Of a stretch of 6,159 bases of DNA, positions 4,821 to 5,186 are shown piece after piece (position 1 is the stretch's first letter; every line of letters begins with the position of its first letter). Under the pieces are notes generated by a model. The model ran no database searches, was not told where the DNA came from, and was given only the letters and a program-made list of their open reading frames with translations. Position numbers and translations under genes: made by a program. The stretch lies in the IMG/VR virus record IMGVR_UViG_2531839236_000025, one strand, 5' to 3'. Origin of the DNA: a virus (Duplodnaviria > Heunggongvirae > Uroviricota > Caudoviricetes).

Positions 4821-5186
4821 TCACAGGCCAGTGATTCCGTCGGCCCTGAGCGTGCCATCAGGAAGCTCAGGCAACGTCGGATCAGGCATACCACTCGCCG
4901 CTTCACTCGCTGACTTCTGGCGATGGCATTCAGTACAGAGGGTCCAGAGGTTCGTCTCCTCATTACCACCACCGAACTGAAGTGCAATGCGGTGATCGAG
5001 TTCACTGTCACAAAGGTCAACCACGCGTCTACAGAGACAACAGTGTCCGGCATCCCTCCGCCAGATACGACGTTTGAGGGAAACCCGGGCACTGCCACTG
5101 ACACGACGCTGTTCCCCCCTCAGGACATTTATCCGCCGGGTGTTCAGAGTTTTGATTCTGCCCGGTAACGTACGAAGCACAGCCAT
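4821..5186 (-). CDS. HNH endonuclease (121 aa), packaging-associated position
   Basis: Clear HNH/zinc-finger motif: HCCLCRRVVDLCDSELDHRIALQFGGGNEETNLWTLCTECHRQK (C-x2-C ... DH ... N ... C-x2-CH). ATG at 5186..5184 with GAGGA SD 6 nt upstream; stop TGA at 4823..4821. Lies immediately upstream of the cos-like region and terS, the HK97-type arrangement. Confidence 0.85.
   Translation of the reverse strand: MAVLRTLPGRIKTLNTRRINVLRGEQRRVSGSARVSLKRRIWRRDAGHCCLCRRVVDLCDSELDHRIALQFGGGNEETNLWTLCTECHRQKSASEAASGMPDPTLPELPDGTLRADGITGL

Follow-up and report, generated by a model that had tools for sequence, protein, structure and literature searches.

In the 6,159-nucleotide (nt) stretch of viral DNA recorded in IMG/VR as IMGVR_UViG_2531839236_000025 (Caudoviricetes), which will be referred to as the window, the open reading frame (ORF) at positions 4821-5186 is likely to encode the terminase-associated HNH endonuclease of a lambdoid phage that packages its DNA from a cohesive end site (cos), with the order HNH gene, 50 nt, 10-nt cohesive end, cosB-like region, terS and terL. 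Window positions 1-6025 are 99% identical to the lambdoid prophage near potC in E. coli O157:H7 EDL933, and the finding is an ordinary instance of the established HK97-type arrangement in a well-annotated phage group. An initial annotation made from the sequence alone had proposed this arrangement, leaving the strand unstated; the HNH, terS, terL and protease-capsid genes all lie on the minus strand. In packaging orientation, the elements concerned are the following (lengths in base pairs (bp) or amino acids (aa)):

4821-5186, minus strand: HNH endonuclease gene, an ATG-to-TGA ORF of 121 aa with the motif CxxC...DH...N...N...CxxCH; the last gene before cos
4820-4532, minus strand: spacer between the HNH gene and terS, 289 bp
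4806-4812, minus strand: run of seven G residues and then ATCA; it precedes the cohesive 10-mer by 35 nt and is kept in all relatives
4712-4780, minus strand: conserved cos core of 69 bp, reading GGACAC, CGCGCCCCCT, CTCACGCAGAG, AAAAAA (4749-4744), TTCCCGTTTCAGGG, CAGTTAACATGTTAACTG
4761-4770, minus strand: inferred cohesive end CGCGCCCCCT, by homology to CGCCCCCCCT of phage Lys8385Vzw and CGCACGTTCC of phage Bcep176
4606-4727: five GTTAACAT/ATGTTAAC motifs (4720-4727 minus, 4714-4721 plus, 4646-4653 plus, 4623-4630 plus, 4606-4613 minus), candidate cosB-like TerS sites
4532-4720, minus strand: extra spacer of the E. coli lineage, about 190 bp between the cos core and the terS start, absent in the Hafnia, Sodalis, Erwinia and Salmonella relatives
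3968-4531, minus strand: terS, 187 aa, starting at a GTG that is preceded by the Shine-Dalgarno sequence GGAGG; Terminase_2/PF03592, phrog_641
2310-3971, minus strand: terL, 553 aa; PF03354 (TerL_ATPase) and PF20441 (TerL_nuclease), phrog_9; HK97 lineage

The product of 4821-5186 matched the Pfam HNH family PF01844 with 26.9 bits (gathering threshold 21.4; E 5e-6) and the PHROG family 589 'HNH endonuclease' with E 1e-37. The zinc ligands C49, C52, C84 and C87 and the catalytic residues D64-H65, N75, N79 and H88 do not vary among 29 aligned homologs (55-98% identity), and with a mean column identity of 78% the family shows purifying selection across genera. The AlphaFold model has a confident core (pLDDT 74-87 for residues 32-100) with disordered tails, and this core matches solved HNH domains. 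Sequence and fold searches of the PDB returned generic HNH domains only (Cas9, IscB-like, Cap5, the Gme nickase 4H9D, EndoVII and McrA); the structure thus confirms the HNH fold and is uninformative on the role of the protein. Scans of the protein with NCBIfam and PADLOC were uninformative as well. Judged by domain score, active site and predicted fold, the identification of an intact HNH endonuclease in the initial annotation is confirmed.

The position of cos was derived from relatives. The junction is carried at an identity of at least 90% by 95 phage records, nearly all of which are in prophage coordinates. The exception is the Stx1 phage Lys8385Vzw, whose HNH and TerS proteins are 84% and 96% identical to those of the window and whose record opens inside the HNH-terS spacer. 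As this record is flagged 'circular', we used the published PhageTerm result rather than the record origin alone: virion reads identified a cos phage whose cohesive ends are 3′, with CGCCCCCCCT as its cos sequence at the genome end (PMC7946995). The record ends with GGACAC CGCCCCCCCT and restarts with CTCACGCAGAGAAAAAATTCC, and the minus strand of the window reads GGACAC CGCGCCCCCT (4770-4761) CTCACGCAGAGAAAAAATTCC, the two cohesive 10-mers differing at one base. Independently, the linear record of Burkholderia phage Bcep176 has the 10 nt CGCACGTTCC repeated at both ends; in packaging orientation the sequence runs TAGAC, CGCACGTTCC, CTCACGCGCAGAAAATTTT, and the repeat is exactly homologous to the 10-mer site of the window. 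Since the ends of both phages map there, the cohesive end was placed at 4761-4770, 50 nt past the HNH stop codon and 229 nt ahead of the terS GTG. The top strand would then be cut between 4761 and 4760 and the bottom strand 10 nt upstream, going by this homology. Other Burkholderia records (vB_E228, vB_E175 and others) open between 2 nt before and 12 nt after the 10-mer; such inconsistent breaks support the cos region, not the exact nicks. Literature searches with the cohesive-end strings yielded nothing relevant, and likewise nothing on the cos site of Bcep176. With the 3′ cos end of Lys8385Vzw mapping to 4770-4761 and the Bcep176 duplication at the homologous place, the earlier reading of 4532-4820 as the cos region is borne out, and the cos site of a very common E. 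coli lambdoid prophage family is fixed to within a few bases.

After the 10-mer, the core continues with CTCACGC, the A6 tract (4749-4744), TTCCC..TTTCAGG and the palindromic CAGTTAACA-TGTTAACTG. The 69-bp core is 83-89% identical to its counterparts in Hafnia, Sodalis, Erwinia and Salmonella phage FSL SP-016, whereas the neighbouring coding sequences of HNH, terS and terL reach only 66-76% identity to the respective genes and the remainder of the spacer does not align with these relatives. Across genera, the noncoding core is therefore better conserved than the neighbouring genes, and it is still recognisable in Burkholderia phages. Upstream of the core, a run of seven G residues is by itself statistically ordinary (2.7 expected per window); its conserved position is the notable part, and we infer that it is a possible cos accessory element. 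HK97 carries G9 followed by ATCA 32 nt upstream of its terminal 10 nt (within 39682-39732 of its genome), and its ends have the same skeleton, namely G9-ATCA, 32 nt, GAC, CGCCGCCAAA and then a T-tract, which lies within the mapped TerS site, +15 to +29 (PMC11331095). The G-run with ATCA 32-35 nt upstream and AC/CGC at the upstream nick (the slash marking the cut) are common to HK97, Bcep176 and the window family. This shared skeleton persists despite the unrelated TerS of HK97.

The partner terminase points in the same direction. The window TerL carries PF03354 and PF20441, as does HK97 gp2, with which it shares 23% identity (BLASTP, E 6e-11), and the HK97 TerL structure 6Z6D was its sole sequence match in the PDB; by these comparisons it belongs to the HK97 lineage. 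In 2014, Kala et al. reportedly tied the HNH requirement to the Terminase_1 (HK97) TerL lineage. Terminase_1 corresponds to pfam03354 (PMC8306868), and the partner TerL found beside the window HNH gene is of this lineage.

In HK97 itself, gp74 is encoded by the last gene (39054-39413 of 39732) and terS is the first (50-535), the two flanking cos, which agrees with the description of the HK97 genome end in the initial annotation. It is established that gp74 binds to TerL and that HK97 needs it in vivo, and in vitro it stimulates the cleavage of cos (PMC13595911; PMC9410871). The HK97 cohesive end is a 10-nt 3′ overhang (PMC11331095; PMC9410871), and in one model TerL and the HNH protein cut one strand each (PMC11331095). 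The window shares with HK97 a small (~120 aa) single-domain HNH protein encoded directly upstream of terS-terL as the last gene before cos, a TerL of the PF03354/PF20441 lineage, and, by homology to its relatives, a 10-nt cohesive end with 3′ overhang, in addition to the G-run and AC/CGC. Both HNH proteins match phrog_589 (E 6e-24 for gp74), whereas the second HNH protein of HK97, encoded in the nin region, matches phrog_131 only. The two proteins differ in the zinc site, which is Cys4 in the window protein (CxxC...CxxC-H) and CxxC...CxxH-H in gp74, and the window protein lacks the insertion of ~16 residues found in gp74, with 14 residues between His65 and Asn79 compared to 30 between His43 and Asn73. 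In gp74 this α-helical insertion lies within the ββα loop (Weiditch 2020, cited in PMC13595911); it is a feature of the gp74 subfamily and not general to packaging HNH proteins. Distances differ too: from cos to the HNH stop codon there are 50 nt in the window and 319 nt in HK97, and from cos to terS 229 nt and 49 nt, respectively.

The adjacency of HNH gene, cos, terS and terL is widespread. Among 5,426 complete E. coli genomes, 1,283 carry a segment of 855 nt covering the HNH gene, the spacer and the 5′ part of terS, with 3,025 occurrences in all, and a search with the spacer alone gave 2,997 occurrences in 1,277 genomes; as the two counts are nearly equal, the adjacency is no chance feature of the window and the HNH gene is not sporadic. 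In the E. coli lambdoid siphophages Lys8385Vzw, BP-4795, YYZ-2008, 1717, 2851 and JLK-2012 and in the O157 Sp/CP-933 prophages, the module is 90-99% identical at the nucleotide level, and in these Stx-converting or related phages HNH and TerS share 84-100% and 91-99% of their amino acids with the window proteins. Lys8385Vzw, which bears this module, is a viable lysogenising siphovirus (PMC6986202). Homologs of the HNH protein with 60-72% identity occur in Hafnia (three metagenomic contigs), Sodalis ligni, Erwinia typographi, Cronobacter and Salmonella phage SP-016; all five lineages have the HNH gene, a short spacer, a Terminase_2 terS, a PF03354 terL and a protease-capsid fusion, with genes upstream of HNH that are unlike those of the window. 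Synteny across genera, the HK97-lineage TerL and the cohesive ends of relatives together uphold the earlier assignment of the HNH-cos-terS-terL order to a cos phage.

Burkholderia phages Bcep176 and vB_E228 extend the comparison. Like the window, they have the cos core (the 10-mer followed by CTCACGCGCAGAAAATTT..TTTTCAGG), a Terminase_2 TerS (37% identical), a PF03354 TerL and an HNH gene as the last gene before the end; unlike the window, they have a single short spacer without a GTTAACAT array, separate portal, protease and capsid genes, and an HNH protein of the gp74 subtype, with E 5e-12 in comparison with gp74 and E 0.2 against the window protein. A gp74-like HNH protein in the same slot beside a homologous TerS argues that the two HNH subtypes are positionally interchangeable. 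The final coding sequence of vB_E228 (44269-44607) and that of vB_E175 (194-532) are misannotated as 'holin'; both encode this gp74-like HNH protein, with the motif CVYC...CDHIIPH...N...LCKPHH and E 5e-12 to gp74. Two further candidates were set aside: a tblastn match to HNH in Burkholderia phage vB_SBP33 falls outside any ORF of at least 60 aa, and an HNH homolog upstream of the terminase region of Moraxella Mcat1 was not used because the intervening genes are unannotated.

The junction has also been disrupted. In PPompW prophages, the HNH and lysis genes are deleted and the cos core is kept, with the end of an ISEc20 element (IS110 family) 16 nt upstream of it, so that the absence of HNH is explained by insertion and deletion; in PPompW_132418 the insertion sequence (IS) and junction region lies at 1268-2726. 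In Cronobacter, an IS3-family element lies inside the HNH-terS spacer (4526-5646 of the Cronobacter sequence). Prophages with an IS at the junction are predicted to depend on HNH supplied in trans. A different kind of boundary is seen on comparison with Lys8385Vzw, where the HNH gene has 86% nucleotide identity and the spacer, terS and terL have 96-98%, which indicates that a mosaic (recombination) junction lies where the right and left arms of the phage genome meet, at cos or close to it.

In the mechanism that we favour, TerS, a Terminase_2 protein with an N-terminal DNA-binding domain, would first bind downstream of the cut, probably at the five GTTAACAT motifs and at the stretch of the core that holds the A-tract and TTTCAGG. 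Bound TerS would position the HK97-lineage TerL on the core, and the HNH protein would then join TerL and either stimulate or itself make one of the two nicks, spaced by 10 nt, from which 3′ cohesive ends result. Packaging would proceed from cos through terS and terL into the head genes, with the HNH gene entering the capsid last. The HNH protein is probably the accessory nuclease that the terminase of this family needs; its physical cooperation with TerL, the strand assigned to each nuclease and the binding of TerS to the motifs are inferred.

Several observations weigh against this explanation. The function of the HNH protein is read from its context, and the fold search retrieved nothing more specific than generic HNH domains. 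Compared with gp74, BLASTP gave a non-significant E of 1.4, and alignment of the two family profiles with hhalign gave a probability of 36% (E 4e-4) over 62 columns confined to the HNH core; orthology to gp74 is therefore not claimed. Hence the label 'gp74 type' given in the initial annotation holds for position and partner terminase and finds only weak backing in the sequence, and we regard the window protein as packaging-associated on the former grounds, with a function that would follow from them, and not as a gp74 ortholog. HK97 gp1 and the Terminase_2 TerS belong to unrelated families. In the comparison with Lys8385Vzw, the HNH gene has diverged further than cos, terS and terL, so tight co-evolution with the terminase is not evident. 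The ends were determined on relatives, the cos of the window element being placed by homology, and the nearly identical copy in EDL933 belongs to a prophage whose portal gene is frameshifted and whose tail genes are truncated.

A packaging factor could also act at a step other than the initial cos cut, for example in completion or termination of packaging or in DNA processing. In Gram-positive cos phages (S. aureus phi12/phiSLT, Geobacillus GVE2 and Lactococcus sk1 with HrdP), HNH proteins encoded next to terS/terL are essential for infective particles, and proheads of the sk1 HrdP deletion mutant nevertheless expand, which points to a defect after initiation (PMC12967558). HrdP thus appears to act later than is proposed here for the window protein by analogy with gp74, and nothing in the window separates an initiation from a termination role. 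The closest mechanistic data, however, come from HK97 with the same TerL lineage and show stimulation of cos cleavage; moreover, a processive cos phage both initiates and terminates with a cos cut, so that little may hang on the distinction. We consider a role restricted to another step a serious but unlikely variant.

Far less probable is a free-standing homing endonuclease, i.e. a selfish gene that lies beside the terminase genes by chance. Phage HNH genes are often mobile and position alone is a weak guide (PMC12315714), one phage record labels a homolog 'homing endonuclease', and the divergence from Lys8385Vzw exceeds that of the neighbouring genes. Yet essentially no E. coli cos-terS junction of this kind is without the gene, which also occurs in five further enterobacterial lineages, and its absence from PPompW is accounted for by ISEc20. 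A homing endonuclease with an associated intron or intein, the alternative named in the initial annotation, is not supported either: there is no intron, intein or split host gene, TerL is contiguous over 553 aa as in the relatives, and synteny is conserved across genera. There is just as little to recommend a restriction, defence or anti-host nuclease of the McrA type, a moron located where the late operon of the prophage ends. Some sources do call homologs 'restriction endonuclease' or 'McrA', and weak PADLOC domain matches to REase_II, DpdF and PtuB were obtained (E 3e-6 to 1e-2), but these names are generic COG1403 labels, the matches cover the HNH core only, no partner genes lie nearby (the neighbours being ylcI, cos and the terminase genes), and the gene remains linked to cos and terminase where its neighbours on the upstream side vary. 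That the prophage is decaying and the gene a relic without function, as the state of the EDL933 prophage could suggest, is the most improbable reading, given an intact ORF with all catalytic residues, purifying selection across genera and the same module at work in the viable phage Lys8385Vzw.

Returning to the terminase-associated HNH protein and its cos site, the region between the cut and terS contains a motif array that spans +34 to +155 downstream of the cut. Five matches to GTTAACAT were observed compared to 0.09 expected, with none elsewhere in the window. In the other genera, a single site of the GTTAACAT type overlaps the terS ATG, 39 nt after the cut, and this ATG is homologous to window positions 4721-4719. 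The additional ~190 bp of the E. coli lineage carry four more motif copies, and the TerS N-termini (MLTxQKRKFALALMSG) remain homologous; the segment appears to have grown by duplication of the site that surrounded the ancestral start of terS. GGAGGG, the Shine-Dalgarno sequence of that earlier start, is lost in this lineage, and a new GGAGG stands ahead of the GTG at 4531.

A rare second class of E. coli loci, found in 13 genomes, keeps the cos core and has all five motifs changed to TAAACAT/ATGTTTA, and the N-terminal region of its TerS differs at six or seven positions. Four mutually diverged members (strains 48, 2012C-4221, A34 and O158:H23) retain the motif positions while the intervening DNA has drifted, and all four have the identical TerS N-terminal variant R19, I24, E25, E30, S32 and C35. 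YlcI (DUF3950) was rejected as a reader of the motifs, being a pseudogene or absent in three of the four second-class loci that keep them. The co-variation of motif and TerS N-terminus suggests recognition sites for TerS, which makes the GTTAACAT motifs candidate cosB-like binding sites on the basis of essentially one class switch. Repeated TerS-binding motifs between nick and terS, with an AT-rich segment between them, are known from cosB and gpNu1 of lambda, as is the difference in specificity between lambda and phage 21. By analogy, the window resembles this system in that the motif type co-varies with the N-terminal DNA-binding region of TerS; lambda differs in its TerS family and in having a 5′ rather than a 3′ overhang.

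We tentatively propose, as an idea with somewhat less than an even chance of being correct, that an E. coli-specific, expanded cosB-like array is read by the N-terminal domain of TerS and that array and TerS have switched specificity together (TTAACAT with K19/L24/A25/A30/T32/V35 versus TAAACAT with R19/I24/E25/E30/S32/C35). This would give two packaging-specificity classes among co-resident lambdoid prophages of pathogenic E. coli, with the invariant part of cos (G-run, AC/CGC and 10-mer, common to Bcep176 and HK97) read by TerL and either HNH subtype. If true, prophages such as PPompW, which keep cos and have lost HNH, could nonetheless have their DNA packaged in trans through other prophages of the same host.

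The family includes Stx1- and Stx2-converting and effector-carrying prophages and is found in about a quarter of complete E. coli genomes, often in several copies. Knowledge of its cos site and nuclease helps to predict which prophages of O157 and other Shiga toxin-producing E. coli (STEC) remain packageable, directly or in trans, to orient phage genome records and to design packaging and transduction experiments. The HK97 paradigm is extended only in that one conserved cos core goes with HNH proteins of two dissimilar subtypes and TerS proteins of two unrelated families; the co-variation of motif and TerS, together with the cos skeleton shared with HK97 and Bcep176, is a modest addition.

Two further genes of the window flank this module:

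309-2246, minus strand: fusion of a prohead protease (S78) with a major capsid protein (HK97 fold), 645 aa, belonging to the head/packaging module
5228-5413, plus strand: ylcI/YnfO (DUF3950) gene, divergent from the HNH gene

The complete order along the minus strand is lysis genes (outside the window), ylcI (divergent), HNH, spacer, terS, terL, protease-capsid fusion and a 73-aa ORF (window ORF 43-264), after which the portal gene follows in EDL933 (region 17513-20264). The architecture of the fusion is identical in every syntenic relative. This order of the head module, with terL, the 645-aa fusion, the 73-aa ORF and then a very long portal gene, is unusual compared to terL-portal-protease-capsid in HK97; Burkholderia phage vB_SBP33 has the order of the window with unfused genes. 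The portal gene comprises ~860 codons and is frameshifted in EDL933 (17513-20097 of the EDL933 context). In the same prophage, tape-measure and tail genes are truncated (including 13119-14533), and this copy, 99% identical to the window, is probably defective despite its intact HNH-cos-terminase module.

The sequence of YlcI resembles a ribbon-helix-helix DNA-binding protein; several relatives that are otherwise intact lack its gene or carry it as a pseudogene, and the other genera do not have it. A scan of 4400-5600 for promoters and terminators gave nothing beyond chance, and Rfam and tRNA scans gave no matches. Beyond ylcI, an AT-rich island at 5450-5850 (35-43% GC compared to ~57% elsewhere) holds a short hydrophobic ORF on the minus strand (5543-5701, hypothetical in the EDL933 annotation) and has the appearance of a moron, set between lysis genes and packaging genes. 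The final 134 nt of the window (6026-6159) do not align to EDL933 or to the other top-match genomes, which points to another mosaic boundary and thus to a different strain or prophage variant as the source of the window.

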